DNA from: Escherichia coli
GTDB taxonomy: Bacteria; Pseudomonadota; Gammaproteobacteria; Enterobacterales; Enterobacteriaceae
Strand: one strand, 5' to 3'
Assembly (NCBI RefSeq): GCF_045037415.1
Contig: NZ_CP173438.1
DNA length: 64,000 bases
Shown piece after piece: positions 12,789 to 39,101 of the stretch (its first letter is position 1; the number at the start of each line of letters is the position of its first letter). Below the pieces are notes generated by a model. That model was not told the origin of the DNA. It ran no database searches and saw nothing but the letters and a program-made list of their open reading frames with translations. Position numbers and translations under genes: made by a program.

Positions 12789-14804
12789 ATGGCTGAACTG
12801 ACTGCGCTTCACACATTAACAGCGCAAATGAAACGTGAAGGGATCCGCCGCTTGCTGGTGTTGAGCGGGGAAGAGCGTTGGTGTTTTGATCATGCGCTTA
12901 AGTTGCGTGATGCCTTACCTGGCGACTGGCTGTGGATTTCGCCGCAGCCAGATGCTGAAAACCACTGTTCTCCCTCGGCACTACAAACTTTACTTGGGCG
13001 CGAGTTCCGGCATGCGGTATTCGACGCCCGCCACGGCTTTGATGCCGCTGCCTTTGCGGCACTTAGCGGAACGTTGAAAGCGGGAAGCTGGCTGGTGTTG
13101 TTACTCCCTGTATGGGATGAGTGGGAAAACCAACCTGATGCCGACTCGCTGCGCTGGAGTGATTGCCCTGACCCTATTGCGACGCCGCATTTTGTCCAGC
13201 ATTTCAAACGCGTACTTACGGCGAATAACGACGCTATCCTCTGGCGGCAAAACCAGCCGTTCTCGTTGGCGCATTTTACTCCCCGTACTGACTGGCACCC
13301 CGCTACCGGCGCACCACAACCAGAACAACAGCAACTCTTACAGCAGCTACTGACCATGCCGCCGGGTGTGGCAGCGGTAACTGCTGCGCGTGGGCGCGGT
13401 AAGTCGGCGTTGGCAGGGCAACTCATTTCTCGTATTGCGGGCAGTGCGATTGTCACCGCTCCCGCAAAAGCGGCAACGGATGTACTGGCACAATTTGCGG
13501 GCGAGAAGTTTCGCTTTATTGCGCCGGATGCCTTGTTAGCCAGCGATGAGCAAGCCGACTGGCTGGTGGTCGATGAAGCCGCAGCTATACCTGCGCCGTT
13601 GTTGTATCAACTGGTATCGCGTTTTCCTCGAACGTTGTTAACTACTACGGTGCAGGGCTACGAAGGCACCGGACGTGGTTTTTTGCTGAAATTTTGCGCT
13701 CGCTTTCCGCATTTACACCGTTTTGAACTACAACAGCCGATCCGTTGGGCGCAGGGATGCCCGCTGGAAAAAATGGTTAGTGAGGCACTGGTGTTTGACG
13801 ATGAAAACTTCACCCATACACCACAAGGCAATATCGTTATTTCCGCATTTGAACAGACGTTATGGCGAAGCGAGCCAGAAACGCCGTTAAAGGTTTATCA
13901 GTTATTGTCTGGTGCGCACTACCGGACCTCGCCGCTGGATTTACGCCGCATGATGGATGCACCAGGTCAACATTTTTTACAGGCGGCTGGCGGAAACGAG
14001 ATTGCCGGAGCGCTGTGGCTGGTGGATGAGGGCGGATTATCTCAAGAACTCAGTCAGGCGGTATGGGCGGGTTTTCGTCGCCCGCGGGGTAATCTGGTGG
14101 CCCAGTCGCTGGCGGCGCACGGCAGCAATCCACTGGCGGCGACATTGCGCGGACGGCGGGTTAGCCGGATAGCAGTTCATCCGACTCGTCAGCGGGAAGG
14201 CACAGGGCGACAGCTTATTGCTGGTGCTTTGCAATATATTCATGACCTCGACTATCTTTCGGTGAGTTTTGGTTACACCGAGGAGTTATGGCGTTTCTGG
14301 CAACGCTGCGGTTTTGTGCTGGTGCGAATGGGTAATCATCGTGAAGCCAGCAGCGGTTGCTATACGGCGATGGCGCTGTTACCGATGAGTGATGCGGGTA
14401 AACAGCTGGCTGAACGTGAGCATTACCGTTTACGTCGCGATGCGCAAGCTCTCGCGCAGTGGAATGGCGAAATGCTTCCTGTTGATCCACTAAACGATGC
14501 CGTCCTTTCTGACGACGACTGGCTTGAACTGGCCGGTTTTGCTTTCACTCATCGTCCGCTATTAACGTCGTTAGGTTGCTTATTGCGTCTGCTACAAACC
14601 AGCGAACTGGCATTACCGGCGCTGCGTGGGCGTTTACAGAAAAACGCCAGTGACGCGCAGTTATGTACCACACTTAAACTTTCAGGCCGTAAGCTGTTAC
14701 TGGTTCGCCAGCGGGAAGAGGCCGCGCAGGCGCTATTCGCACTTGATGATGTTCGCACTGAGCGTCTGCGCGATCGCATAACGCAATGGCAATTTTTTCA
14801 CTGA
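12789..14804 (+). CDS. tmcA: tRNA(Met) cytidine acetyltransferase TmcA
   Basis: 671 aa, MAELTALHTLTAQMKREGIRRLLVLSGEE...; helicase-like plus GNAT architecture. Confidence 0.93.
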   Translation: MAELTALHTLTAQMKREGIRRLLVLSGEERWCFDHALKLRDALPGDWLWISPQPDAENHCSPSALQTLLGREFRHAVFDARHGFDAAAFAALSGTLKAGSWLVLLLPVWDEWENQPDADSLRWSDCPDPIATPHFVQHFKRVLTANNDAILWRQNQPFSLAHFTPRTDWHPATGAPQPEQQQLLQQLLTMPPGVAAVTAARGRGKSALAGQLISRIAGSAIVTAPAKAATDVLAQFAGEKFRFIAPDALLASDEQADWLVVDEAAAIPAPLLYQLVSRFPRTLLTTTVQGYEGTGRGFLLKFCARFPHLHRFELQQPIRWAQGCPLEKMVSEALVFDDENFTHTPQGNIVISAFEQTLWRSEPETPLKVYQLLSGAHYRTSPLDLRRMMDAPGQHFLQAAGGNEIAGALWLVDEGGLSQELSQAVWAGFRRPRGNLVAQSLAAHGSNPLAATLRGRRVSRIAVHPTRQREGTGRQLIAGALQYIHDLDYLSVSFGYTEELWRFWQRCGFVLVRMGNHREASSGCYTAMALLPMSDAGKQLAEREHYRLRRDAQALAQWNGEMLPVDPLNDAVLSDDDWLELAGFAFTHRPLLTSLGCLLRLLQTSELALPALRGRLQKNASDAQLCTTLKLSGRKLLLVRQREEAAQALFALDDVRTERLRDRITQWQFFH

Positions 14805-14877
14805 CTCCTTCAATTTTCTCCCATGGTCATTGTGAGTCAGCGGCGTAAAATTAATGACATCAGTTAAGGAGTTCGCC

Positions 14878-15576
14878 ATGAAACATGACCATTTTGTTGT
14901 TCAAAGCCCGGATAAACCAGCACAACAGTTGTTACTGCTTTTCCACGGTGTCGGGGATAACCCGGTGGCAATGGGGGAAATAGGTAGCTGGTTTGCGCCG
15001 CTGTTTCCTGATGCGCTGGTGGTGAGTGTCGGTGGCGCGGAGCCGAGCGGTAATCCGGCGGGGCGTCAGTGGTTTTCGGTGCAGGGTATTACGGAAGATA
15101 ATCGCCAGGCGCGTGTGAATGCCATCATGCCGACGTTTATTGAGACGGTGCGCTACTGGCAGAAACAAAGCGGAGTAGGGGCTAACGCCACGGCGCTAAT
15201 CGGTTTCTCACAAGGCGCGATTATGGCGCTGGAGAGCATTAAAGCCGAACCGGGCCTTGCTTCGCGCGTCATTGCCTTCAACGGACGCTACGCGAGCCTG
15301 CCGGAAACCGCGTCTACAGCCACAACAATTCACTTGATTCATGGCGGTGAAGATCCGGTTATCGATCTGGCGCATGCGGTTGCGGCGCAGGAAGCGTTAA
15401 TCAGTGCCGGTGGTGACGTGACGCTGGATATCGTGGAGGATTTAGGCCATGCGATCGACAATCGCAGTATGCAATTTGCCCTGGATCACTTGCGTTATAC
15501 CATTCCGAAACATTATTTCGACGAAGCGCTAAGCGGCGGTAAGCCTGGCGATGATGATGTGATTGAAATGATGTAA
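14878..15576 (+). CDS. ypfH: Esterase YpfH (alpha/beta hydrolase)
   Basis: ATG 14878 gives MKHDHFVVQSPDKPAQQLLLLFHGVGDNP...; GFSQG serine-hydrolase motif. Confidence 0.92.
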   Translation: MKHDHFVVQSPDKPAQQLLLLFHGVGDNPVAMGEIGSWFAPLFPDALVVSVGGAEPSGNPAGRQWFSVQGITEDNRQARVNAIMPTFIETVRYWQKQSGVGANATALIGFSQGAIMALESIKAEPGLASRVIAFNGRYASLPETASTATTIHLIHGGEDPVIDLAHAVAAQEALISAGGDVTLDIVEDLGHAIDNRSMQFALDHLRYTIPKHYFDEALSGGKPGDDDVIEMM

Positions 15577-15582
15577 TAATAG

Positions 15583-15649
15583 CCGGGTAGGTCTGATAAG
15601 ACTGTATCAGGCATCATGGCCGGATGCGGCGTTAACGCCTTATCCGGCC
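15583..15649. repeat. REP/BIME element
   Basis: gccgggtaggtctgataagactgtatcaggc...atggccggatgcggcgttaacgccttatccggcc. Confidence 0.85.
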
Positions 15650-15656
15650 ACTTAGC

Positions 15657-15857
15657 TTACTTCTTCGGTTGATCCTTTTTCGGCCAGTCGTCGTCATCGT
15701 CCCACTTATCGTTGAAATCACGATGCGGGGGAAGCTCCGGCTTGTTGGCGAGAAATTTCTTATGGTCGACGCGCTTGAGATCTTTAATCACGTTCAGCAG
15801 GACGCCTACCAAAAAGACAATCACCAGAATCCACCAATATTTAGCCAGCCAGTCCAT
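15657..15857 (-). CDS. ypfN: Small membrane protein YpfN
   Basis: ATG at 15857 gives [34 protein letters not shown]..., 66 aa. Confidence 0.88.
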
Positions 15858-15884
15858 GCTTATTTCCTCTTGCAGAACCACTCA

Positions 15885-17012
15885 TCAGGCGACGAGCTGT
15901 TCCATGATACGTTGATACATACGGGCAAGTAGCTGCAGGTCGGCAGCGTTCACACATTCATTGATTTTATGAATCGTGGCATTGACCGGCCCGAGTTCCA
16001 CCACCTGCGCCCCCATGCGGGCAATAAAGCGCCCGTCGGACGTTCCGCCTGTGGTCAGTAGCTGCGGTTTAATTTCATTATAGTGCTCAACCGCGTTAAC
16101 GACCGCATCCACCAGTTTACCGCGCGCGGTCAAAAATGGCTGCCCGGAAAGCCACCAATCCACCGTATAGCGCAGTTGATGTTTTTCAAGCAGGGCAAGC
16201 ACCTGCGCTTTGATCATCTCATCCGTCAGTTCGGTGCTAAAGCGGAAGTTAAACTGCACAAACAGTTCACCTGGAATAACGTTGTTACTGCCCGTTCCCG
16301 CCTGAATATTGGCAATCTGCATACTGGTCGCCGGGAAGAAGTCATTACCCTGATCCCACTCAATAGCCACTAATTCATTAATGAAAGGTGCTGCGCGATG
16401 TACCGGATTGTCAGCCAGATGTGGGTAGGCAACATGCCCCTGAACGCCATGAATGGTAAGGTTGCAGGTTAACGATCCGCGACGACCATTTTTCACCACA
16501 TCACCTACCACTTCGATACTCGACGGTTCGCCAACCAGACAGTAATCGAGACGCTCATTACGCGCCATTAACGCTTCGACGACTTTTACCGTACCGTTGT
16601 GGGCACTAGCTTCTTCATCAGAGGTGATCAGAAATGCCAGTCGCCCTGTATGGTTGGGATGTTGTGCGACAAAGCGTTCTGCCGCTACCACCATCGCCGC
16701 CAGCGAGCCTTTCATATCTGCCGCACCTCGCCCAAATAACATGCCGTCACGAATGGTTGGTTCAAATGGTGGATTGATCCAACGGTCGGCGTCGCCAGGC
16801 GGCACCACGTCGGTATGCCCGGCAAAGGCTAACGTTTCACCCTGCCCGCGCCATGCCCAAAAATTCTGCGTATCGGCAAAGTCCATGCGTTCAACGGTAA
16901 AACCGATCGCCTGCAAACGTTCAATCAACAAAGCCTGGCATCCTGCGTCATCAGGACTCAGGGAAGGGCGGCGAATAAGCTGTTGTGTCAGCTCAATAAC
17001 CGGGCACGACAT
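15885..17012 (-). CDS. dapE: Succinyl-diaminopimelate desuccinylase
   Basis: 375 aa, [29 protein letters not shown]..., M20 peptidase family. Confidence 0.97.
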
Positions 17013-17015
17013 AGA

Positions 17016-17390
<375 letters not shown>

Positions 17391-17752
17391 TTATGAGAAT
17401 AAATACTCATTTAAGGGTGAAAACATTTTGCCTGCAAATGATTATCAGGAAATATAACATTATCGAAGTATTCAAATTAACAACTATTAAATAACATTAA
17501 ACATTTTTAACGTAAACATTAAGAATATTCATCTTGTTATCTGTCTGTATTTTAACCAGAATTAAATCAGTATTAGATGCCGTATGAATATCTCGAAATG
17601 TTGCGGTGTATCACATACAAATCATCACCGCAGGACCATAGTATTTACATAAGGTTTGTCCCCCGGAGGTAGTCATCGCAGCAATCGAGTAAATTAGCTT
17701 CACCACGGTATATTGTTTCCGTAGAATACCCATAATTATAAGAGAGGTTGTT

Positions 17753-17812
17753 ATGATTGAACGTGAACTGGGGAACTGGAAAGACTTTATCGAAGTTATG
17801 CTTCGTAAGTAA
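17753..17812 (+). CDS. ypfM: Small protein YpfM (19 aa)
   Basis: ATG 17753 to TAA 17812 encodes MIERELGNWKDFIEVMLRK, preceded by RBS agagagg; matches the E. coli small protein as I recall it. Confidence 0.75.
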   Translation: MIERELGNWKDFIEVMLRK

Positions 17813-17877
17813 TTCCTGAGACAAAGTACAAACAGCAAGAACCCGCTGAGCAGGTTCTTAATCGGAAAGTTGAAAAG

Positions 17878-17905
17878 GGCGACACATTGGCATGTCGCCT
17901 TTTTT
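17878..17905. terminator. Bidirectional intrinsic terminator between ypfM and acrD
   Basis: ggcgaca/tgtcgcc stem flanked by A-run upstream and TTTTTT downstream. Confidence 0.75.
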
Positions 17906-17910
17906 ATTGC

Positions 17911-20900
17911 TTATTCCGGGCGCGGCTTCAGCGGGAAGCGGCGGCGCACCAGCACAAAGAACAGCGGCACGAAGTAAATAGCCAGAATAGTGGCCGAAAT
18001 CATCCCGCCCATTACGCCAGTACCCACCGCATGCTGACCACCGGAACCGGCACCTGTGCTGGTTGCCATTGGCAATACGCCGAAGATAAATGCCAGCGAG
18101 GTCATCAGAATCGGGCGTAAACGCTGACGGCAGGCGTGGAGCGTCGCTTCAAACAGGTCGTGGCCTTTTTGGTTCATCTCGTTAGCAAACTCGACGATCA
18201 GGATGGCGTTTTTCGCCGATAAACCAATGACCGTTAACAGGCCCACCTGGAAGTAAACATCGTTTTCCAGCCCGCGCATCCAGGTTGCCAGCAGCGCGCC
18301 GATAACCCCCAGCGGCACGACCAGCATTACCGAGAACGGCACCGACCAGCTTTCATACAGCGCAGCCAGACACAGGAATACCACCAGCAAGGAAATGGCG
18401 TACAGCGCCGGAGCCTGCGCGCCGGAAAGCCGCTCCTGATACGACATCGCCGTCCACTCCAGACCAAAGCCGTTTGGCAACTGCTTCACTAACGATTCCA
18501 TAATATCCATCGCCGTACCGGTACTGACCCCCGGTGCGGCTTCCCCAACAATCTCAACCGCAGAATAACCGTTATAGCGTTCCAGACGCGGCGAGCCTGT
18601 CTCCCAGCGTGAGGTCGCGAAAGCAGAGAAGGGCACCATGCCGCCATCTTTATTTCGGACATACCAGAGATTGATGTCATCTGGCAGCATGCGATACGGC
18701 GCAGCTGCCTGCACATAGACTTTCTTCACGCGACCGCGATCCATAAAGTCATTCACATAGCTCGAACCCCAGGCGGTTTGCAGTGTGTCGTTAATATCGT
18801 CGATAGCAACGCCCAGCGCCTGAGCTTTACGCTGGTCGATATCAATCTGCAACTGCGGACTGTCGTCGAGGCCGTTATGGCGCACACGGGTTAGCTCCGG
18901 GTTTTCCGCTGCCAGCGCCAGCAACTGGTTTCGTGCTGCCATCAGCGCATCGTGACCCGCTCCAGCGTGGTCCTGCAACTCCATATCAAAACCCGCAGAA
19001 CTACCAAGACCGCTAATTGCTGGCGGGCTGCTGGCGATAACGCGAGCTTCTTTAATCTTGTTAAACGCCTTCGTTGCACGCTCGATAATGGCAAACGAGG
19101 TGCCGGTCTTACTGTCGCGTTCGCTCCAGTCTTTCAGGCGGATAAACATTCGCGCCACGTTTTGCCCGTTCCCCCCAGGGCCAGAACCCACGGTGGCAAA
19201 CACCGACATGATGTTGTCTTTTTCATGGGTGAAGTAATATTTCTCGATTTGCTCAACGACTTTCAGGGTCTGTTGCTGGGTTGAACCGCTGGGCAACTGT
19301 ACCGAGGTAGTAAACATGCCACGGTCTTCCAGCGGTAAGAACGACGTCGGCAAACGCAGGAACAGGAACACCATGCCGCCAAGCAGCAGGACATAAATCA
19401 CAATCCAGCGCAGGCTACGGTGGAGAATTTTCGCCACCCCTTTTTCGTAGCGTTCGGCGTTGCGGTTAAACATCTGGTTAAACCAGGCAAAAAAGCCTTT
19501 TTGCCCGTGATGCTCACCTTTTTTCAGTGGCTTAAGTAGTGTGGCACACAGAGCCGGAGTGAGGATCATCGCTACCAGTACTGACAGCACCATCGCCGCA
19601 ACAATGGTAATAGAGAACTGGCGATAGATGGCACCGGTGGTGCCGCCGAAGAAGGCCATTGGCACAAATACCGCCGAAAGCACCATCGCAATCCCGACCA
19701 GTGCCCCCTGGATCTGCCCCATCGATTTACGTGTGGCTTCGCGAGGAGTGAGTCCTTCCTCACTCATAATACGTTCGACGTTTTCCACCACCACGATGGC
19801 ATCATCCACCAGCAGACCGATCGCCAGCACCATCGCGAACATGGTTAAGGTGTTGACGCTATAGCCGAAGGCATAAAGCACCGAGAAGGTTCCCATCAAC
19901 ACCACCGGCACGGCGATAGTGGGTATCAGCGTGGCGCGGAAGTTTTGCAGGAACAGATACATAACGAGGAAAACCAGGGCGATAGCTTCCAGAAGCGTTT
20001 TCACCACGTCTTCAATGGAGGCTTTTACAAAAGAGGTGGTTTCATACGCCACCTTGTATTCCAGTCCGTGTGGAAAATACTGCGCCAGCTCGTCGAGACG
20101 ATTGAGCACCAGCTCCGCTGTCGCCATTTCGTTCGCGCCGGAGGCCAGTTTTACCCCCAGCCCGGAGGCTGGCTTACCATTGAAGCGGCTAAGATAATCG
20201 TATTTCTCCGCCCCCATTTCGACGGTGGCGACATCGCCCAGCCTTACCTCTGAGCCGTCCTGATTCACCCGCAAGGTGATATCGCGGAACTGTTCTGGTG
20301 TTTGCAGCAGTGACTGGGCGTTAATGGTGGCGTTGAGCGCCTGCTTATCGACGGAAGGCGTACCACCAAGTTGCCCAACCGCAATCTGCGCGTTCTGTGA
20401 TTCAATGGCATCGGTGACATCTTTAGCCGTCATCTGGAAACTGTTGAGTTTCGCCGGGTCCAGCCAGATACGCATGGAATATTGCGAACCATAGGCATCG
20501 ATATCCCCGACGCCATTCACGCGGCTTAACGGGTCCTGAATATTACTGGCAACATAATCGGCAATATCCTGTTTATCCATCGAACCATCGGTAGAGACGA
20601 AGGCAATGGTCAGAATGTTGGTATCGCCGGTTTTACGCACCGTCACGCCCTGATTTTGCACCGCCTGCGGTAACTTTCGCATGGCTGATTGCAGCTGGTT
20701 TTGTACTTGCTGCACGGCTTCGTCCGGATCGGTGCCTGCTTTAAAACTTAACGTGACAGATGCCTGACCGGTGCCGCTGCTCTGAGATGACATATACATC
20801 AGATTATCGAGGCCGGTCATATTTTGCTCGATAACCTGGGTCACGGTGTTTTCCAGCGTCTGGGCCGATGCGCCGGGATAGTTAGCGGTCACTCGCACAT

Positions 20901-21024
20901 TCGGTGGCGCGAGATCGGGGTATTGTTCAACGGGCAATGAAAAAATCGCCAGGGTACCTGTCAGACACAACAGGATTGCCAGCACCCAGGCAAAAATGGG
21001 GCGATCAATAAAGAAATTCGCCAT
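17911..21024 (-). CDS. acrD: RND aminoglycoside efflux pump AcrD
   Basis: 1037 aa, [41 protein letters not shown]..., 12-TM RND transporter. Confidence 0.97.
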
Positions 21025-21093
21025 TAAAAGAGGACCTCGTGTTTCTGCGTATCGTTGTAGGCTTGGCTTGCTTCACTGTAGCGGCAAGGTACG

Positions 21094-21111
21094 AGCCAAT
21101 CGTGGAGAAAA
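21094..21111 (-). promoter_or_regulatory. BaeR response-regulator box in acrD promoter
   Basis: Minus-strand TTTTTCTCCACGATTGGC matches the BaeR consensus TTTTTCTCCATDATTGGC at 17/18 positions, about 70 bp upstream of acrD start. Confidence 0.6.
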
Positions 21112-21187
21112 AAAGGAGTTAATGTAAATTATCATGCCCTTTTATACTGAACCTTAAGTGCCACTATTCTTTGGTCAATAAGAGGCA

Positions 21188-22888
21188 TTACATCAGCTGA
21201 CTTTCCTCACCCTCCGCAGAGCGAAAGCTAATACTCACTAACGTGCCGCCGCCGGAAGGTTGTGAAAAAGTCAGCGTCCCACCCAATCTTTCCGCGCGTT
21301 CGCGCATGATATTCAGACCATAATGGCCTTCGGGTTCTTTCGGTTCACCGATGCCAATCCCGTTGTCGCGAATATAGACTGTGTGATTGCCATCCGGCGC
21401 GGTGACGCAGCTAACGGCGATTTCGCTGGCGTTGGCGTGCTTCATCGCATTCAGCACCGCTTCGCGAATAATTTGCAACAAATGCACCTGCATTTGCGCA
21501 TCCAGCGCCAGGGTTGGCAGACGGCAGTCGAGGGTCAGTTTGGCGCTGGTTTGATTTTGTAACGTATCCAGCATTTCCCTCAACGCGGAGGGGAGATCCG
21601 CCTGCTGCAGCGTCAGGCGGAAAGTAGTCAACAGCTCGCGTAACTGCCGATAAGCATCATTCAACGCCTGGGAAAAATCGGCCATGATACTTTGTGCGGT
21701 GGCGTTATCTTCCGGTATCGAACGCTTCAGTAACGTCAACTGGATACGTAAGTAAGAAAGTACCTGAGCCAGCGAGTCGTGCAATTCGCGGGCGATGGTC
21801 GCACGTTCTTCCATCAACAATAACTGCTGAAAATGCTTCTGCGCCTGATTAAAGTACAAACCGCGTCCCAGCATCGACGAAACGCTGTTAAGCAGCGGTT
21901 CTGATGATGAAACGTGACTATTTTGCCAGTGCAGTTCTCCGTAAACCGTCTCTTGCATTGTCACCGGTAAAATCTGCATCGGCAATTCCGGGTTTGGCTG
22001 CCCTTCGCTAATCCGCCAGTTGTCACCGACATTTAACTCCAGATATTCAGCCGCTTCATTGTCGCGAACAATCTGCAAAATATGGCGGAAACAATGCACA
22101 TCAATCTGGCTGGTGTTTAGCGCCTGCGAACACTGATACAACACCTCCAGACGACGCTTGGCCTCGTGGAGATCGCGGGTCTTTTCTTCTACTGACGCCT
22201 CCAGCGAACGGTACAATTTATGCAGCTCGCTCGACATCTGGTTAAAGGTTTTTGCAAGCAGGCCAAGCTCATTCGGCAGGCTGGTATCCAGCGGCGGCGA
22301 GTCGAACTGCCCGTGTTCAATACGCTGACTGGCGGTAACCAGCTGATTCAGCGGGGCAACCACCTGATGGCGTATGCGGCGCAAAGTAAAAAAGACCAGC
22401 GTGAAAATACCGATGCCGCCAGCCAGGGAAATTGCCACCACCAGCAGCATTTTGCGTTCAGCGTAGTGCTGTAAAGCCAGCACGAACAGGTCTATCTGAT
22501 TAACATAATTATTAATATTGGCCTGATACCACGGCAAGTCGCCCTTGCTGAGCCGATTATTCATCTCCAGCCAGTTGGCATTCAGATGCGCATAGCGGGT
22601 TTTTACTGCCTCTGGCACATACCAGACGTTGAGATTGGTTAATACCGGTGAATGCAGTGCCTGCTGAAATAACTGGCGATGTGCATTGAGTTGTGGACTG
22701 CCACTTTGCAAGTCGTAGCCCAGGCGGTAACTCTGCATACGCAGCGATCCGGCAATATTGATAGCCTCAGCGTCGCGTAAACTGCTCGCCAGCGTTAGCA
22801 GAGCGATACCCGTGGAAAGAATCGACAGCAGCACAATGTAAAAAAAGGCCCGGGCCAGACTGGCCGAGACGGGTCGTTTAACAATCAC
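21188..22888 (-). CDS. narQ: Nitrate/nitrite sensor histidine kinase NarQ
   Basis: ORF 21188..22903; NarQ N-terminus (M)IVKRPVSASLARAFFYIVLL corresponds to GTG at 22888; HAMP and HisKA_3/ATPase regions. Confidence 0.93.
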   Translation of the reverse strand: MIVKRPVSASLARAFFYIVLLSILSTGIALLTLASSLRDAEAINIAGSLRMQSYRLGYDLQSGSPQLNAHRQLFQQALHSPVLTNLNVWYVPEAVKTRYAHLNANWLEMNNRLSKGDLPWYQANINNYVNQIDLFVLALQHYAERKMLLVVAISLAGGIGIFTLVFFTLRRIRHQVVAPLNQLVTASQRIEHGQFDSPPLDTSLPNELGLLAKTFNQMSSELHKLYRSLEASVEEKTRDLHEAKRRLEVLYQCSQALNTSQIDVHCFRHILQIVRDNEAAEYLELNVGDNWRISEGQPNPELPMQILPVTMQETVYGELHWQNSHVSSSEPLLNSVSSMLGRGLYFNQAQKHFQQLLLMEERATIARELHDSLAQVLSYLRIQLTLLKRSIPEDNATAQSIMADFSQALNDAYRQLRELLTTFRLTLQQADLPSALREMLDTLQNQTSAKLTLDCRLPTLALDAQMQVHLLQIIREAVLNAMKHANASEIAVSCVTAPDGNHTVYIRDNGIGIGEPKEPEGHYGLNIMRERAERLGGTLTFSQPSGGGTLVSISFRSAEGEESQLM

Positions 22889-23093
22889 ACGCGTCTTCTC
22901 CACAAAAAATCATTAATCTTCCAGTTCGCTGAAACGCAATTTAGTCAGTGATGGGATTATTTGATCTGCCACAGTTTATAGCGAAATAGTTACTTATTCT
23001 GGGCACATGAACATTGCCGATTCCCCTGTAAGTCGGGTAATAACAACACTCATATAAAGAATAAGGTTTTTACAACCAAAAAAGAAGGTCGTT

Positions 23094-25073
23094 ATGAATC
23101 GTTTTATTATGGCCAACAGTCAGCAATGTCTGGGTTGTCATGCTTGTGAAATCGCCTGTGTCATGGCTCACAATGACGAGCAACATGTCCTGAGCCAACA
23201 CCATTTTCATCCCCGAATTACGGTTATCAAACATCAGCAGCAACGTAGTGCCGTGACCTGTCACCATTGTGAAGATGCGCCCTGCGCCCGTAGCTGCCCT
23301 AATGGCGCAATCAGCCACGTTGATGACAGCATTCAGGTCAATCAGCAAAAGTGTATTGGCTGTAAATCCTGCGTGGTGGCCTGTCCATTTGGTACGATGC
23401 AAATCGTTCTGACACCCGTTGCGGCAGGAAAAGTAAAAGCCACGGCGCATAAATGCGACCTTTGTGCAGGGCGCGAAAACGGTCCTGCCTGTGTCGAAAA
23501 TTGCCCGGCGGACGCGCTGCAACTGGTCACTGACGCCGCACTCTCCGGCATGGCGAAATCCCGCCGCTTGCGCACCGCACGTCAGGAACATCAACCGTGG
23601 CATGCCAGTACCGCGGCGCAAGAAATGCCGGTAATGAGTAAAGTCGAGCAAATGCAGGCAACGCCCGCGCGTGGCGAGCCAGATAAACTGGCGATTGAAG
23701 CGCGCAAAACCGGTTTTGATGAAATTTATCTGCCATTCCGTGCCGATCAGGCACAACGGGAAGCCTCGCGCTGCCTTAAGTGCGGCGAGCACAGCGTTTG
23801 TGAATGGACCTGCCCGCTGCATAACCATATACCGCAGTGGATTGAACTGGTGAAAGCCGGAAACATCGACGCCGCCGTCGAGCTTTCTCACCAGACCAAC
23901 ACCCTGCCGGAAATTACCGGACGCGTTTGCCCGCAAGACCGTTTGTGTGAAGGTGCCTGTACTATTCGCGATGAGCACGGCGCAGTAACTATCGGTAACA
24001 TTGAACGCTACATTTCAGATCAGGCGTTGGCGAAAGGTTGGCGTCCTGACTTAAGCCATGTCACCAAAGTGGACAAGCGGGTGGCGATTATCGGTGCGGG
24101 TCCGGCAGGGCTGGCCTGTGCAGATGTTCTGACCCGCAATGGCGTGGCGGTGACGGTGTACGATCGCCATCCAGAAATCGGTGGCTTGCTCACTTTCGGC
24201 ATTCCTTCTTTCAAACTGGATAAATCCCTGCTGGCACGCCGTCGGGAAATCTTCAGCGCGATGGGGATTCACTTCGAACTCAATTGTGAAGTGGGTAAAG
24301 ATGTCTCTTTGAATTCGCTTTTGGAACAATACGACGCGGTCTTCGTTGGCGTAGGCACTTACCGTTCCATGAAAGCGGGTTTACCCAATGAAGATGCGCC
24401 GGGCGTTTATGACGCGCTGCCGTTCCTCATCGCCAACACTAAACAGGTGATGGGACTCGAAGAGCTACCGGAAGAGCCGTTTATCAATACCGCCGGACTT
24501 AACGTCGTGGTACTGGGCGGCGGCGACACCGCGATGGACTGTGTGCGTACCGCGCTGCGCCATGGCGCGAGTAACGTCACCTGCGCTTATCGTCGTGATG
24601 AAGCTAACATGCCAGGCTCGAAGAAAGAGGTGAAGAACGCCCGTGAAGAGGGGGCCAACTTCGAATTTAACGTCCAGCCGGTGGCGCTTGAGCTGAATGA
24701 ACAAGGTCACGTCTGCGGGATTCGTTTCCTGCGCACGCGTCTTGGCGAGCCGGATGCCCAGGGACGTCGGCGTCCAGTGCCGGTGGAAGGCAGTGAATTT
24801 GTCATGCCAGCCGATGCGGTGATTATGGCGTTTGGCTTCAATCCGCACGGGATGCCGTGGCTGGAGTCGCACGGTGTAACGGTAGACAAATGGGGCCGCA
24901 TCATCGCGGATGTGGAAAGCCAGTACCGTTACCAGACCACGAATCCGAAAATCTTCGCCGGTGGTGACGCCGTGCGTGGTGCGGATCTGGTGGTTACCGC
25001 AATGGCAGAAGGACGTCATGCGGCACAGGGGATCATTGACTGGCTGGGCGTAAAATCAGTCAAATCTCACTGA
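23094..25073 (+). CDS. aegA: Fe-S cluster oxidoreductase AegA (ferredoxin domains fused to GltD-like NADPH oxidoreductase)
   Basis: 659 aa, N-terminal CxxCxxCxxxCP ferredoxin motifs and C-terminal FAD/NAD GxGxxG motifs. Confidence 0.93.
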   Translation: MNRFIMANSQQCLGCHACEIACVMAHNDEQHVLSQHHFHPRITVIKHQQQRSAVTCHHCEDAPCARSCPNGAISHVDDSIQVNQQKCIGCKSCVVACPFGTMQIVLTPVAAGKVKATAHKCDLCAGRENGPACVENCPADALQLVTDAALSGMAKSRRLRTARQEHQPWHASTAAQEMPVMSKVEQMQATPARGEPDKLAIEARKTGFDEIYLPFRADQAQREASRCLKCGEHSVCEWTCPLHNHIPQWIELVKAGNIDAAVELSHQTNTLPEITGRVCPQDRLCEGACTIRDEHGAVTIGNIERYISDQALAKGWRPDLSHVTKVDKRVAIIGAGPAGLACADVLTRNGVAVTVYDRHPEIGGLLTFGIPSFKLDKSLLARRREIFSAMGIHFELNCEVGKDVSLNSLLEQYDAVFVGVGTYRSMKAGLPNEDAPGVYDALPFLIANTKQVMGLEELPEEPFINTAGLNVVVLGGGDTAMDCVRTALRHGASNVTCAYRRDEANMPGSKKEVKNAREEGANFEFNVQPVALELNEQGHVCGIRFLRTRLGEPDAQGRRRPVPVEGSEFVMPADAVIMAFGFNPHGMPWLESHGVTVDKWGRIIADVESQYRYQTTNPKIFAGGDAVRGADLVVTAMAEGRHAAQGIIDWLGVKSVKSH

Positions 25074-25140
25074 TAGCCTGCGCAGACAAACCCGACTTCA
25101 CAGCGTAAGATAATTGTTCATTTCGCGCTGTGGAGTCGGT

Positions 25141-25716
25141 ATGACGCAACAAATCACCCTCGTTAAAGACAAAATTCTCTCCGATAACTATTTCACCCTG
25201 CACAACATTACTTACGATCTCACGCGCAAAGATGGCGAAGTTATCCGCCATAAACGTGAAGTTTACGATCGCGGTAATGGTGCGACGATCCTCCTGTACA
25301 ACGCGAAGAAAAAGACCGTGGTTCTGATTCGCCAGTTCCGCGTCGCTACCTGGGTTAATGGCAATGAAAGCGGGCAACTGATTGAAACCTGCGCCGGGCT
25401 GCTGGATAACGACGAACCGGAAGTGTGCATTCGCAAAGAAGCGATTGAAGAGACGGGCTATGAAGTTGGCGAAGTCCGCAAATTATTTGAACTGTATATG
25501 TCGCCAGGCGGTGTGACTGAGCTAATCCACTTTTTTATCGCCGAATACAGTGACAGCCAGCGCGCTAACGCCGGTGGTGGTGTCGAAGATGAAGATATTG
25601 AAGTGCTTGAGCTGCCGTTCAGCCAGGCGCTGGAGATGATTAAAACCGGCGAGATACGTGACGGTAAGACGGTGTTATTGCTTAACTATTTGCAAATGTC
25701 ACATTTAATGGACTGA
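25141..25716 (+). CDS. nudK: GDP-mannose pyrophosphatase NudK (Nudix hydrolase)
   Basis: ATG 25141 gives [27 protein letters not shown]...; Nudix box [21 protein letters not shown]. Confidence 0.93.
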
Positions 25717-25841
25717 AAAATAACAATAATATTTCGTTGTTTATTATTGGCTCAATCCGACAAATCCGATTGAGCCGCGCTACCTGCGCAACGAAGATAC
25801 GACTTGTGCTGTTTGTTTGAACTTCTGGGGTCGTACCGTCC

Positions 25842-26886
25842 ATGCGATATCGCATTTTCCTTCTCTTTTTTTTCGCTTTGTTGCCGATGTCTTTGGTGTG
25901 GGCGGCACCAGCGCAACGGGCGTTTTCCGACTGGCAGGTCACCTGTAATAATCAAAATTTCTGTGTAGCGCGCAATACGGGCGATCATAATGGACTGGTG
26001 ATGACCCTGAGCCGCAGCGCCGGGGCGCATACCGATGCCGTTTTACGTATTGAGCGCGGCGGGTTGAAGTCGCCGGATGCGTCAGAAGGGGAGATAGCGC
26101 CACGGCTGCTGTTAGATGGTGAGCCGTTGGCGTTAAGTGGTGACAAGTGGCGGATTTCACCATGGTTATTAGTAACCGATGATACGGCAACCATCACCGC
26201 GTTTTTGCAGATGATTCAGGAAGGGAGGGCGATCACCTTACGCGACGGCAATCAGACTATTTCTCTGAGTGGCTTAAAAGCGGCGTTGTTGTTTATTGAT
26301 GCCCAGCAAAAGCGCGTTGGCAGTGAGAACCGCGTGGATAAAGAAAGGGGACGAACCGCCGCTCAGCGTACCGCCAGCGCCTGCGCTGAAAGAGGTCGCG
26401 GTGGTTAACCCAACGCCGACGCCACTCTCACTCGAAGAACGTAACGATTTGCTGGATTATGGAAACTGGCGGATGAATGGTCTGCGCTGTTCGCTTGATC
26501 CGTTACGTCGTGAGGTGAATGTCACTGCGCTGACCGATGATAAAGCGCTGATGATGATTAGCTGTGAGGCAGGGGCCTATAACACCATTGATTTGGCATG
26601 GATTGTGTCGCGTAAAAAGCCGCAGGCCTCGCGCCCGGTACGGTTGCGTTTGCCGTTCAACAACGGTCAGGAGACCAATGAACTGGAACTGATGAACGCA
26701 ACATTCGATGAAAAATCGCGTGAACTGGTGACCTTAGCAAAAGGGCGCGGATTAAGCGATTGTGGCATTCAGGCGCGCTGGCGCTTTGACGGTCAGCGTT
26801 TTCGCCTGGTGCGTTACGCCGCAGAACCCACCTGCGATAACTGGCATGGGCCAGACGCCTGGCCCACGTTGTGGATCACCCGTTAA
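25842..26886 (+). pseudogene. ypfG: ypfG (DUF1176 periplasmic protein) disrupted by an apparent +1 frameshift
   Basis: Two overlapping ORFs, 25842..26408 (frame 0, signal peptide MRYRIFLLFFFALLPMSLVWA) and 26296..26886 (frame 1), together span one gene-length locus; 1045 nt is not a multiple of 3. Confidence 0.6.
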
Positions 26887-26904
26887 ACAAAATGGCGGGG
26901 ACAT

Positions 26905-26955
26905 GTAGACCGGATAAGACGCACCAGCGTCACATCCGACAATCAGCATCCGGCG
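26905..26955. repeat. REP element
   Basis: gtagaccggataagacgcaccagcgtcacatccgacaatcagcatccggcg. Confidence 0.8.
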
Positions 26956-26962
26956 ATCACCA

Positions 26963-28966
26963 TCAGGCACCTTTCACTCCCAGTACCTTATGCGCTTTTG
27001 CCACAATATTCTCGGCGGTAAAGCCAAAGAACGGGAACAGCTTATCCGCCGGAGCTGATTCCCCATAACCTGTCATCCCGACAATTGCCCCTTTCAGGCC
27101 AACATATTTGTACCAGTAATCGGCAATACCCGCTTCTACTGCCACGCGGGCAGAAACATTTGAAGGCAGTACCGACTCCCGATATTTCTCATCCTGGGCA
27201 TCGAAAATATCGGTCGAGGGCAGGGAAACTACGCGAACATTGCGACCTTCTCCCGCTAATTTCTCTGCCGCTTGCAGGGTGATTTCCATCTCTGAACCGG
27301 TGGCAATCAGAATAATATCTGGCTTACCGCCGCTGTCTTTCAGCACATAACCGCCACGAGCAATCTCTTTAACCTGATCCGGTGTTCGTTCTACCTGTGC
27401 CAGATTCTGCCTGGAGAGGATCAGTGCTGTCGGTCCGTTGTGGCGCTCAACCGCCAGCTTCCAGCCAACCGCCGCTTCCACCTGATCGCACGGTCGCCAG
27501 GTGCTGAAATTTGGCGTTAAGCGCAGACTAGCCAGTTGCTCAACAGCCTGGTGCGTCGGACCATCTTCGCCCAGACCAATTGAGTCGTGGGTATAAACCA
27601 TAATCTGCCGCGCTTTCATCAGTGCCGCCATCCGCGCGGCGTTACGGGCGTATTCAACAAACATCAGGAACGTCGCGGTATACGGCACAAAGCCGCCGTG
27701 GTGCGCGATGCCGTTGGCGATAGCGGTCATACCAAATTCACGCACCCCGTAGTGAATGTAGTTGCCCGCCGGATCTTCCTTCAGCGAAACAGAACCTTTC
27801 CAGATGGTCAGGTTGCTGGGAGCCAGATCCGCCGAACCGCCGAGCAACTCAGGCAGCATCGGCCCGTAAGCGTTAAGCGTATTTTGCGAAGCCTTACGGG
27901 TAGCGATTTTCGCCGGATTCGCCTGCAACTCATTGATATATTTCTGAGTCGTTTTCTCCCAGTCCTTCGGCAAACCGCCGCTCATCCGACGGGTAAACTC
28001 TTCTGCCAGTTGCGGATGAGCCTTTTTATAGGCGGCAAACTTCTCATTCCAGCTCTGCTGCGCTTTTTCGCCTTTTTCGCGGGCATCCCAGGCGTGATAA
28101 ATCTCTTTAGGGATCTCAAATGGCGGATGGTGCCAGCCCAGTTTTTGCCGTGCCAGAGCTACTTCTTCTTCCCCCAGCGGTGCGCCGTGCGCCTCTTCCT
28201 TACCTGCTTTATTCGGCGAACCAAAGCCAATCACCGTACGGCAGATAATCAGCGACGGCTTATCTTTCACGCTTTGCGCTTCAAGGATCGCTTCCTTCAC
28301 CGCCTGCGGATCGTGGCCGTCGATCTCGTGGACCACATGCCAGTGATAGGCTTCAAAACGTTTTGCCGTATCGTCGGTAAACCAGCCTTCGGTTTCACCG
28401 TCGATGGAAATACCGTTGTGATCGTAAAAACCAATCAGCTTGCCCAGCCCCAGCGTGCCCGCCAGCGAACAGACTTCGTGAGAGATACCTTCCATCAGGC
28501 AGCCGTCGCCCATAAACACATAGGTGAAGTGATCGACAATTTCATGATCCGGCTGATTAAATTGCGCCGCCAGCGTACGCTCTGCTATCGCCAGCCCGAC
28601 GGCGTTCGCCAAACCTTGTCCAAGAGGACCGGTGGTGGTTTCAACACCTGGCGTATAACCGATTTCCGGGTGACCAGGGGTTTTCGAATGCAACTGACGG
28701 AAGTTCTTCAGTTCTTCCAGTGGCAGGTCGTAACCGGTCAGATGCAGCAAACTGTAGAGCAGCATCGACGCGTGACCGTTGGAAAGAATAAAGCGGTCGC
28801 GATCATACCAGGTTGGGTCGGTAGGGTTATGTTTAAGAAAATCGTTCCACAGCACTTCGGCAATATCAGCCATGCCCATCGGCGCGCCGGGATGACCAGA
28901 ATTGGCTTTTTGTACCGCATCCATACTGAGTGCGCGAATCGCATTGGCAAGGTCTTTTCGGGACAT
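26963..28966 (-). CDS. tktB: Transketolase 2
   Basis: ATG at 28966 gives [40 protein letters not shown]..., 667 aa. Confidence 0.97.
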
Positions 28967-28985
28967 ATAACACTCCGTGGCTGGT

Positions 28986-29936
28986 TTATAGTTTGGCGGC
29001 AAGAAGATCTTCCAGTTTGCGTTGATCAACGGCGAACAGACGAATGCCTTCAGACAGTTTTTCTACCGCCATCGCATCCTGATTGTGCTCCCAACGGAAC
29101 TCTGCTTCGCTCATGGGAGCTGGGCGTGGGAACGTCTGAGAAGGTGGGATTAATTTACGTACCACTGGCGAAACTTTTTCCTGTAGCTCCTTCAGCAAAT
29201 TCGGTGCGATAGTCAGTCGGTCGCAGCCGGTTAAGGCGAGGATTTGTTCGGTGCGACGGAAGCTCGCGCCCATCACAATGGTTTCATAGTGGTGTTGCTT
29301 ATAGTAGTCGTAGATATTGCGTACTGATTTAACGCCTGGATCTTCTTCCACCACATACGGGTCCATCGGCTTGCGTGCCTGATACCAGTCATAAATACGC
29401 CCGACAAATGGCGAAATCAGAAAAACGCCTGCTTCTGCACAGGCCCGCGCCTGTGCAAAAGAAAACAGCAGCGTCAGGTTGCAGTTAATACCTTCTTTTT
29501 CCAGCTCTTCTGCCGCGCGAATTCCTTCCCAGGTCGAAGCCAGCTTGATCAGAATGCGCGATTTCTCAACGCCTTGTTGCTGATACAAATCCACCAGATG
29601 GCGCGCCTTCTCAATACTCTTTTCTTTATCAAAAGAGAGGCGTGCATCAACTTCTGTTGACACGCGACCGGGTACGATTTTGAGAATTTCAGCACCGAAA
29701 TTGACCGCCAGTTTGTCACACGCTGCGACCACCTGTTGTTCCTGGGTCTTGCCATTTTTTTTACCCCAGGCGATAGCATCGTCTATTAAATGCTCATATT
29801 GTGATAATCCGGCAGCCTTGAGTAACAGCGAAGGATTGGTGGTGGCATCCTGGGGATGATAATGGCGAATGGACTCAATATCGCCGCTGTCTGCCACGAC
29901 AGTGGTGAACTGTTTGATGCCGTCTAACTCGTTCAT
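28986..29936 (-). CDS. talA: Transaldolase A
   Basis: 316 aa, [42 protein letters not shown]... Confidence 0.97.
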
Positions 29937-30224
29937 AGGAAATACTCCTTGAAAAGTAAAGTGTTAGATGAGTGCGTTAATTCACACTTCTGAGAAATTT
30001 CGCTAAACGCATCAAAAAAGCATAGCAGACAGGCATGGTATTGCTGGATTAAGCAGGTAACATCAGTGTTATATGATTATTACCAAAACATTATATTAAT
30101 GGTGAGAGTTTGGACTTGCTCAAAGTCTGTAGACTCCGGCAGGGTAATAATGTGCGCCACGTTGTGGGCAGGGGCTGTTGCCCACACAATTTATTTGTGA
30201 ACGTTACGTGAAAGGAACAACCAA

Positions 30225-32504
30225 ATGGATGACCAGTTAAAACAAAGTGCACTTGATTTCCATGAATTTCCAGTTCCAGGGAAAATCCAGGTTTCTCCAA
30301 CCAAGCCTCTGGCAACGCAGCGCGATCTGGCGCTGGCCTACTCACCAGGCGTTGCCGCACCTTGTCTTGAAATCGAAAAAGACCCGTTAAAAGCCTACAA
30401 ATATACCGCGCGCGGTAACCTGGTAGCGGTGATCTCTAACGGTACGGCGGTGCTGGGGTTAGGCAACATTGGCGCGCTGGCAGGCAAACCGGTGATGGAA
30501 GGCAAGGGCGTTCTGTTTAAGAAATTCGCCGGGATTGATGTATTTGACATTGAAGTTGATGAACTCGACCCGGACAAATTTATTGAAGTCGTCGCTGCGC
30601 TCGAACCGACCTTCGGCGGCATCAACCTCGAAGACATTAAAGCGCCAGAATGTTTCTATATTGAACAGAAACTGCGCGAGCGGATGAATATTCCGGTATT
30701 CCACGACGATCAGCACGGCACGGCAATTATCAGCACTGCCGCCATCCTCAACGGCTTGCGCGTGGTGGAGAAAAACATCTCCGACGTGCGGATGGTGGTT
30801 TCTGGCGCGGGTGCCGCAGCAATCGCCTGTATGAACCTGCTGGTAGCGCTGGGTCTGCAAAAACATAACATCGTGGTTTGCGATTCAAAAGGCGTTATCT
30901 ATCAGGGCCGTGAGCCAAACATGGCGGAAACCAAAGCCGCATATGCGGTGGTGGATGACGGCAAACGAACCCTCGATGATGTGATTGAAGGCGCGGATAT
31001 TTTCCTCGGCTGTTCCGGCCCGAAAGTGCTGACCCAGGAAATGGTGAAGAAAATGGCCCGTGCGCCAATGATCCTGGCGCTGGCGAACCCGGAACCGGAA
31101 ATTCTGCCGCCGCTGGCGAAAGAAGTGCGTCCGGATGCCATCATCTGTACCGGTCGTTCCGACTACCCGAACCAGGTGAACAACGTCCTTTGCTTCCCGT
31201 TTATCTTCCGTGGCGCGCTGGACGTTGGCGCAACCGCCATCAACGAAGAGATGAAACTGGCGGCGGTACGCGCGATTGCAGAACTGGCCCATGCGGAACA
31301 GAGTGAAGTGGTGGCTTCAGCGTATGGCGATCAGGATCTGAGCTTTGGTCCGGAATACATCATTCCAAAACCGTTTGATCCGCGCTTGATCGTTAAGATC
31401 GCTCCTGCGGTGGCGAAAGCGGCGATGGAGTCGGGCGTGGCGACGCGTCCGATTGCTGATTTCGACGTCTACATCGACAAGCTGACGGAGTTCGTTTACA
31501 AAACCAACCTGTTTATGAAGCCGATTTTCTCCCAGGCTCGCAAAGCGCCGAAGCGCGTAGTTCTGCCAGAAGGGGAAGAGGCGCGCGTTCTACATGCCAC
31601 TCAGGAACTGGTAACGCTGGGACTGGCGAAACCGATCCTTATTGGTCGTCCGAACGTGATCGAAATGCGCATTCAGAAACTGGGCTTGCAGATCAAGGCG
31701 GGCGTTGATTTTGAGATCGTCAATAACGAATCCGATCCGCGCTTTAAGGAGTACTGGACCGAATACTTCCAGATCATGAAGCGTCGCGGTGTCACTCAGG
31801 AGCAGGCGCAGCGTGCGCTGATCAGTAACCCGACAGTGATCGGCGCGATCATGGTTCAGCGTGGCGAAGCCGATGCAATGATTTGCGGTACGGTGGGCGA
31901 TTATCATGAACACTTTAGCGTGGTGAAAAATGTCTTTGGTTATCGCGATGGCGTTCACACCGCAGGTGCAATGAACGCGCTGCTGTTGCCGAGTGGTAAC
32001 ACCTTTATTGCCGATACCTACGTCAATGATGAGCCTGATGCAGAAGAGCTGGCGGAGATCACCTTGATGGCGGCAGAAACTGTTCGTCGTTTTGGTATTG
32101 AGCCGCGTGTGGCTCTGTTGTCGCACTCCAACTTTGGTTCTTCTGACTGCCCGTCGTCGAGCAAAATGCGTCAGGCGCTGGAACTGGTCAGGGAACGTGC
32201 GCCAGAACTGATGATTGATGGTGAAATGCACGGCGATGCAGCGCTGGTGGAAGCGATTCGCAACGACCGTATGCCGGACAGCCCTTTGAAAGGTTCCGCT
32301 AATATTCTGGTGATGCCGAACATGGAAGCTGCCCGCATTAGTTACAACTTACTGCGTGTTTCCAGCTCGGAAGGTGTGACTGTCGGCCCGGTGCTGATGG
32401 GGGTGGCGAAGCCGGTTCACGTGTTAACGCCGATCGCATCGGTACGTCGTATCGTCAACATGGTGGCGCTGGCCGTGGTTGAAGCGCAAACCCAACCGCT
32501 GTAA
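30225..32504 (+). CDS. maeB: NADP-dependent malic enzyme (malic enzyme fused to PTA-like domain)
   Basis: 759 aa, [47 protein letters not shown]... Confidence 0.97.
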
Positions 32505-38264: not shown

Positions 38265-39101
38265 ATGGCGCACGATGAACAATGGCTCACCCCACGTCTG
38301 CAAACGGCGGCAACGCTGTGTAACCAGACGCCCGCCGCGACGGAATCTCCGCTGTGGCTGGGGGTGGATCTGGGCACCTGCGATGTGGTGTCGATGGTTG
38401 TCGACCGCGACGGTCAGCCGGTGGCGGTATGCCTCGACTGGGCCGATGTGGTCCGCGACGGCATCGTCTGGGATTTCTTCGGTGCGGTCACCATTGTTCG
38501 TCGCCATCTCGACACCCTTGAGCAGCAATTCGGTCGCCGTTTTAGCCATGCGGCGACCTCATTTCCTCCTGGTACGGACCCGCGTATTTCCATCAACGTG
38601 CTGGAGTCTGCCGGACTGGAAGTGAGCCATGTGCTGGATGAGCCAACCGCAGTTGCGGATCTGCTGCAACTGGACAACGCCGGTGTAGTGGATATCGGCG
38701 GCGGCACTACCGGCATTGCCATCGTGAAAAAGGGCAAAGTGACGTACTCGGCGGATGAAGCCACCGGCGGACATCACATCTCTCTGACTCTCGCCGGAAA
38801 TCGCCGTATTTCGCTGGAAGAGGCAGAGCAGTACAAACGCGGTCACGGTGACGAGATTTGGCCCGCGGTGAAACCGGTGTACGAAAAAATGGCGGACATT
38901 GTGGCCCGTCATATTGAAGGGCAGGGCATTACGGATTTATGGCTGGCGGGCGGTTCCTGTATGCAACCGGGCGTAGCGGCGCTGTTTTGCAAACAATTTC
39001 CGGCGTTACAGGTGCATTTACCGCAGCACAGTTTGTTTATGACCCCGCTGGCAATCGCCAGTAGTGGGCGAGAGAAAGCGGAGGGGCTATATGCAAAATG
39101 A
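38265..39101 (+). CDS. eutJ: Ethanolamine utilisation chaperonin-like protein EutJ (Hsp70/actin fold)
   Basis: 278 aa, MAHDEQWLTPRLQTAATLCNQ...DIGGGTTGIAIV. Confidence 0.93.
   Translation: MAHDEQWLTPRLQTAATLCNQTPAATESPLWLGVDLGTCDVVSMVVDRDGQPVAVCLDWADVVRDGIVWDFFGAVTIVRRHLDTLEQQFGRRFSHAATSFPPGTDPRISINVLESAGLEVSHVLDEPTAVADLLQLDNAGVVDIGGGTTGIAIVKKGKVTYSADEATGGHHISLTLAGNRRISLEEAEQYKRGHGDEIWPAVKPVYEKMADIVARHIEGQGITDLWLAGGSCMQPGVAALFCKQFPALQVHLPQHSLFMTPLAIASSGREKAEGLYAK

Follow-up and report, generated by a model that had tools for sequence, protein, structure and literature searches.

The window, i.e., the whole stretch of 64,000 nt of Escherichia coli DNA that was analysed, contains the ypfG locus between the genes nudK and tktB (Table 1). 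The first-pass annotation had placed the locus in this interval and in the DUF1176 family and had described it as two ORFs in different frames, overlapping by 113 nt; gene order and the Pfam match agree with the placement, and the coordinates of both ORFs, 25842..26408 and 26296..26886, were reproduced. The span 25842..26886 comprises 1045 nt (3 × 348 + 1). The first 21 codons (25842-25904, MRYRIFLLFFFALLPMSLVWA) are hydrophobic, end in VWA followed by AP and look like a Sec signal peptide, and the TTG/ATG start of the downstream ORF simply marks where the open frame begins. YpfG is a conserved DUF1176 protein with a predicted periplasmic location, belonging to a functionally uncharacterised family. 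A sequence search of solved structures with YpfG returned no match. Inhibition of LolCDE was reported to raise ypfG expression strongly (~40-fold), along with that of envelope-stress genes (PMC5105897), and complement was reported to induce it in an ExPEC strain (PMC4145685).

Alignment with the intact ST131 allele (strain S2, 1044 nt, WP_001270494.1) revealed one extra A, located at 26328/26329 and changing GAGACC to GAGAACC, as the sole difference in the CDS. Both the origin of the 1045-nt span from a single-base insertion and its site at 26328-26329, with the join ...QQKRVGSE/TAWIKKGDEPPLS..., had been proposed from the sequence of the window, and the comparison with the intact allele led to the same base and the same junction. 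The protein restored in this way comprises 347 aa and is identical to WP_001270494.1. Residues 25-347 of the restored YpfG are covered by the Pfam family DUF1176 (PF06674; model positions 1-322 of 322, E=1.2e-106), and the model runs across the frame junction. Once the surplus base is removed, the window gene is no different from ypfG (b2466) of E. coli K-12, which shares both the position between nudK and tktB and the full-length family match.

The ypfG locus was found at a coverage of at least 80% in 5,424 of the 5,426 complete E. coli genomes, and in nearly all of the 5,426 the gene has the form of a single 1044-nt ORF, with intact CDSs of this length in strains S2, SE15 and Esc2, among others. 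Since the DUF1176 match is end-to-end and the locus is near-universal in E. coli, the ORF pair 25842..26408 / 26296..26886 is not a product of chance. In Citrobacter, Salmonella and Enterobacter, the homologue is one protein of 346-347 aa, with 76-81% identity at 100% coverage; together with the full-length Pfam match, this indicates that one gene is the normal arrangement. The possibility that two separate genes are normal here had been raised in the first-pass annotation as a circumstance that would change the interpretation, and the orthologues proved instead to be single in-frame ORFs. An arrangement of two genes, or a programmed ribosomal frameshift, as the normal state of the locus agrees with the two overlapping ORFs and with nothing else; its probability is negligible, given the single ORF in other E. 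coli genomes, the single-protein orthologues, in which the frameshift is not conserved, and the Pfam model spanning the junction. To our knowledge, GAG-AAC-CGC is not among the known slippery sequences.

Table 1. Coordinates of the ypfG locus, the Eco31I sites and the related features of strain Esc11
Feature	Sequence	Coordinates	Strand	Remarks
ypfG region as assembled, DUF1176	window	25842..26886	+	1045 nt, one surplus base
Upstream ORF, 188 aa, ATG start	window	25842..26408	+	162 native YpfG residues and 26 out-of-frame residues
Downstream ORF, 196 aa, TTG start, +1 frame	window	26296..26886	+	native YpfG residues 163-347 from 26330
nudK	window	25141..25716	+	flanks ypfG
tkt/tktB	window	26963..28966	-	flanks ypfG
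Disrupted Eco31I site	window	26325..26331	+	GAGAACC here, GAGACC in intact alleles
Second Eco31I site	window	26671..26676	+	GAGACC, unchanged in the window
parA, annotated 'frameshifted'	Esc11 IncI1 plasmid NZ_OZ369472.1 (90.6 kb)	20353-20998		insertion at 20487-20493
Eco31I-family adenine methyltransferase and adjacent cytosine-5 methyltransferase	Esc11 chromosome	3980820-3983625		genes intact
Alw26I/Eco31I/Esp3I-family endonuclease	Esc11 chromosome	3991704-3993374		intact, beside mcrCB

The insertion lies in a recognition site of the restriction-modification system Eco31I, which recognises GGTCTC/GAGACC and is associated with N6-methylation of adenine at GAG(m6A)CC (Forde et al. 2015, PMC4659465; Bitinaite et al. 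1992, cited therein). With the surplus A (26328 or 26329), the adenine that is N6-methylated in this motif is present twice. In the ST131 strain EC958, every GAGACC site (100%) carries the m6A introduced by M1.EcoMI (=M1.Eco31I), and GGT(m5C)TC methylation was predicted for the second EcoMI methyltransferase; the EcoMI/Eco31I system is chromosomal, is located on GI-leuX beside mcrBC and occurs in ST131 clades A and C (PMC4659465). The same pair of modifications, GAG(m6A)CC and GGT(m5C)TC, was found among nanopore methylation calls for E. coli ATCC 25922 (PMC12679398). The assignment of GAGACC to Eco31I/EcoMI follows the ST131 methylome study (PMC4659465). The shorter motif AGACC, recognised by the type III system EcoP1I, was considered and dropped, the window containing 72 AGACC/GGTCT sites versus only one GAGACC.

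Over its full length of 64,000 nt, the window shows 100% identity to positions 1700810-1764809 (reverse complement) of NZ_OZ369470.1 of the ST131-type strain Esc11, in which ypfG is annotated by PGAP as a "frameshifted" pseudogene. A 70-nt probe across the insertion, for which a 100% match was required, was compared with the 5,426 complete E. coli genomes. The insertion is present in exactly 27 of them, namely, 23 Esc assemblies, three Taiwanese clinical isolates (446, 447 and 463) and one Egyptian urine isolate (98194), i.e., in 23 of the 31 Esc assemblies and in 3/3 Taiwanese ones. All 27 carriers belong to recent accession series (CP173..., CP183..., OZ369...). The same allele, at an identity of at least 99% and without the extra base, was found in ~1,000 further genomes, including the ST131 strains JJ1887, O25b:H4 and SE15. 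Whether other isolates share the insertion had been proposed as a check in the first-pass annotation; these 27 do, and not as a clade.

Over 25 kb, strain 98194 differs from SE15 at two positions only, which are the m6A position of each GAGACC site, and between the window and SE15 there are seven ordinary SNPs in addition to the insertion. The insertion therefore stands on two haplotypes, SE15-like (98194) and JJ1887-like (Esc and Taiwanese isolates), the nearest relatives of each being intact, and over these 25 kb the carriers do not form a single clade.

Apart from the second GAGACC site of ypfG, 26671-26676, the 64-kb window contains no intact GAGACC/GGTCTC. In the 2.1 kb compared, the carriers differ from the window at positions 26673 and 26674 only: strain 447 has G>A at 26673, in the G paired with the m5C of this site, and strain 98194 has A>T at 26674, in its m6A. 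Each of the three carrier variants thus coincides with one of the two modified base pairs of a GAGACC site, a motif that occurs only twice in the region with the disrupted copy included, and the chance of three independent variants in those 12 of 2,101 compared positions is ~2e-7. The substitution 26673 G>A is common to three unrelated genomes, 447 (human, Taiwan), C25 (cattle) and A1.S1.126 (human), and could be either a recurrent error or a genuine deamination of 5-methylcytosine.

Strain Esc2 belongs to the same clone and project as Esc11, with chromosomes of 5,156,529 and 5,156,500 bp, respectively. The ypfG gene of Esc2 is intact and encodes WP_001270494.1, and in the ~26 kb of overlap the two assemblies are identical except for the A at 26328. 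The state of ypfG is therefore inconsistent within the clone: the gene is intact in Esc2 and frameshifted in Esc11 and 22 other Esc assemblies. Among Esc assemblies of the same clone, the chromosomes vary in length by tens of bp, and the lengths of plasmid 3 lie within 90,627-90,648 bp; such scatter among clonal assemblies points to residual indel noise.

The same change, GAG-ACC to GAGAACC, was found in the parA gene on the IncI1 plasmid of Esc11, where no other single-base indel occurs over 25 kb in comparison with the reference IncI1 plasmids pT247A and pSF-468-2. These 25 kb contain 142 Esc-specific differences, nearly all of which are clustered substitutions or in-frame repeat changes; clustered differences are typical of IncI1 mosaicism. 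Among the 731 genomes with the sequence, the parA insertion is limited to Esc-series assemblies, and it is also present in Esc2, 3, 4, 8, 14, 15 and 22, all of which are without the ypfG insertion. In Esc11, the change was found at only 2 of the ~23 GAGACC sites that were inspected, and it is missing from two plasmid sites with an identical 11-mer (GTGAGACCGCG), which implies either a dependence on wider context or a borderline call.

Several other candidates for the same effect were rejected. The IncI1 GAGAACC/GGTTCTC sequences at 39386 and at 42081 (mobA) are natural, since the reference plasmids also read GAGAACC at the former and the mobA protein is the same in both references at the latter. 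The 'frameshifted' genes for DUF905, yjhQ (near the Eco31I locus) and rnhA (plasmid 2) contain neither GAGAACC nor GGTTCTC. No GAGACC/GGTCTC was detected in 50 kb of the 106-kb phage-plasmid of Esc11 (plasmid 2), nor in 25 kb of two related reference plasmids, so the phage-plasmid is uninformative as a test bed, the absence of sites being natural avoidance rather than corruption. In the window, GAGACC/GGTCTC is likewise strongly depleted, with one site versus ~7 expected from a Markov model and ~31 from length alone; the depletion in the window and in the phage-plasmids looks like natural restriction-site avoidance. The 'frameshifted' rnhA of plasmid 2 (1172-1832) is unlinked to the Eco31I motif. 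The same plasmid has a run of brand-new protein accessions (WP_452124xxx), which may reflect further assembly errors or real divergence.

The extra A could also have arisen as a single real mutation, carried from one ST131 sublineage to another on a short tract exchanged by homologous recombination. A tract of up to ~17 kb would be invisible, as there is no clade-discriminating SNP from window position 14000 to 31568. Such a history is nevertheless extremely unlikely, because it leaves unexplained the coincidence of the insertion with the m6A, the identical event in the plasmid parA, the variants at the second GAGACC site and the intact ypfG of Esc2.

Genes for an Eco31I-type system are present in the Esc11 chromosome (Table 1). 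The motif, the genes and the mcrBC neighbourhood are shared with Eco31I/EcoMI of ST131, and methylation in Esc11 is predicted from these genes. The difference is that in Esc11, a module with ISEcp1-blaCTX-M-15, IS26, aac(6')-Ib-cr and blaOXA-1 splits the methyltransferase genes from the endonuclease gene. This ~8-kb chromosomal module, within 3980820-3993374, is composed of ISEcp1-blaCTX-M-15, a Tn3 remnant, IS26, aac(6')-Ib-cr, blaOXA-1 and a catB remnant. At its 3' end, the endonuclease ORF shares 26 nt with the catB remnant, and the C-terminus of the Eco31I endonuclease may be altered in Esc11 through this overlap. At 4026986-4029478 of the Esc11 chromosome, fimB is interrupted by the ISL3-like element ISEc53; this is a known ST131 trait and agrees with the lineage assignment of Esc11.

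Taken together, the motif coincidence, the methyltransferase genes, the recurrence at a second site, the discordance within one clone and the non-clade distribution support an artefact: the extra A is very probably a long-read consensus error at a doubly methylated Eco31I site, the real ypfG being intact, and the frameshift is probably not a real pseudogene. Two alternatives had been left side by side in the first-pass annotation, recent pseudogenisation and an assembly indel. The latter is favoured by the m6A coincidence, the recurrence in parA, the intact gene in Esc2 and the non-clade carriers, and the former is probably wrong.

The error would proceed as follows. The two methyltransferases encoded by the strain would modify adjacent base pairs of GGTCTC/GAGACC, and the m6A on one strand and the m5C on the other may distort the signal, which is the presumed cause at the signal level. 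In some contexts, the basecaller or polisher would then call the methylated A twice, converting GAGACC to GAGAACC. A borderline call of this kind would be present in some assemblies of one clone and absent from others, and the same error would recur in unrelated Eco31I-positive strains from other laboratories. The sequencing was probably nanopore-only, the platform being presumed.

Previous studies have described strain- and motif-specific nanopore errors induced by methylation, as well as indels that persist in assemblies built from long reads only (Lohde et al. 2024, PMC11610573; Sanderson et al. 2024, PMC11170131; bioRxiv 10.64898/2026.01.14.699587). The ypfG case is similar to the published nanopore methylation errors (PMC11610573, PMC11170131) in that the modified base of a strain-specific motif is affected at some instances only, and in that replicate assemblies disagree, creating false differences between otherwise identical genomes. 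It differs in the type of error: those published are mainly A/G and C/T substitutions, i.e., purine for purine and pyrimidine for pyrimidine, rather than insertions, whereas the change in ypfG is mainly a 1-nt insertion on a presumed platform. This difference argues against an artefact. The ypfG case is further distinguished by its location at a type IIS site whose two strands are modified at adjacent base pairs, one by m6A and the other by m5C, and by yielding false 'frameshifted' pseudogenes in RefSeq. A literature search on GGTCTC-specific nanopore errors gave nothing relevant, and no paper citing the carrier accessions was found.

The insertion is also fairly consistent (23/31 Esc and 3/3 Taiwanese assemblies), and a real segregating mutation could give the same pattern. 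A genuine recurrent +1 mutation, for which the Eco31I sites, or the ypfG site alone, would be hypermutable in Eco31I-positive ST131, is unlikely; its product would be an exported 188-aa N-terminal fragment without the C-terminal half. It is consistent with the reproducibility of the insertion in 27 assemblies from three sources and with the G>A opposite m5C at the second site in three unrelated genomes, and a methylated site could in principle be a mutational hotspot. Deamination of 5-methylcytosine is an established hotspot mechanism. Duplication of N6-methyladenine, however, has no known mechanism, and Eco31I cuts outside its recognition site, so that break repair would not put an indel there. 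A more specific form of recurrent mutation, in which the +A is real and doubly methylated Eco31I sites, with m6A beside m5C, are methylation-dependent insertion hotspots that inactivate genes such as ypfG and the plasmid parA in ST131 reversibly and again and again, is very unlikely.

A hotspot would also be expected to appear in thousands of short-read ST131 assemblies. A collection of ~15 billion proteins contains neither the exact 188-aa product nor the downstream products of 195 and 196 aa, while intact YpfG is present in it on at least 1000 contigs. When metagenomes were scanned with a pattern accepting either state, the 37-nt intact form was detected in 18/18 contigs, a result of low power. 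Both look-ups are of limited power, since the carrier records are recent and rare. The absence of the truncated product and the intact metagenome contigs count against recurrent mutation, as do the restriction of the carriers to recent accession series and the discordance of same-clone assemblies.

With a consensus error as the preferred reading, the frameshift carries little biological weight, as ypfG is most likely intact in the strain. A false pseudogene would be present in at least 27 RefSeq "complete" E. coli genomes for ypfG and in at least 20 for the plasmid gene parA, with methylation of Eco31I sites as the apparent cause in both cases. Such errors inflate pseudogene counts, give false alleles in cgMLST and SNP typing and, in a pandemic clone, could be misread as adaptive loss of genes. 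The change from GAGACC to GAGAACC is a signature that can easily be screened for and may serve as a quality-control warning at Eco31I sites. If the insertion were true, it would represent a methylation-linked mutational hotspot, a previously unknown kind of mutability linked to restriction-modification.

Two further observations were made in the comparisons of the window. Within eutJ, a segment of 466 nt (38444-38909) contains six substitutions relative to SE15 and 98194, with the accession of the EutJ protein unchanged; the changes thus appear synonymous, and the segment has the appearance of either a clade marker or a patch of recombination of small size. Genomes of U12A-U15A, AVS0051 and CMZE063 match window positions 14000-38999 in two pieces spanning 25,776 nt, which indicates that they carry a ~776-nt insertion, IS1-sized, within this stretch.
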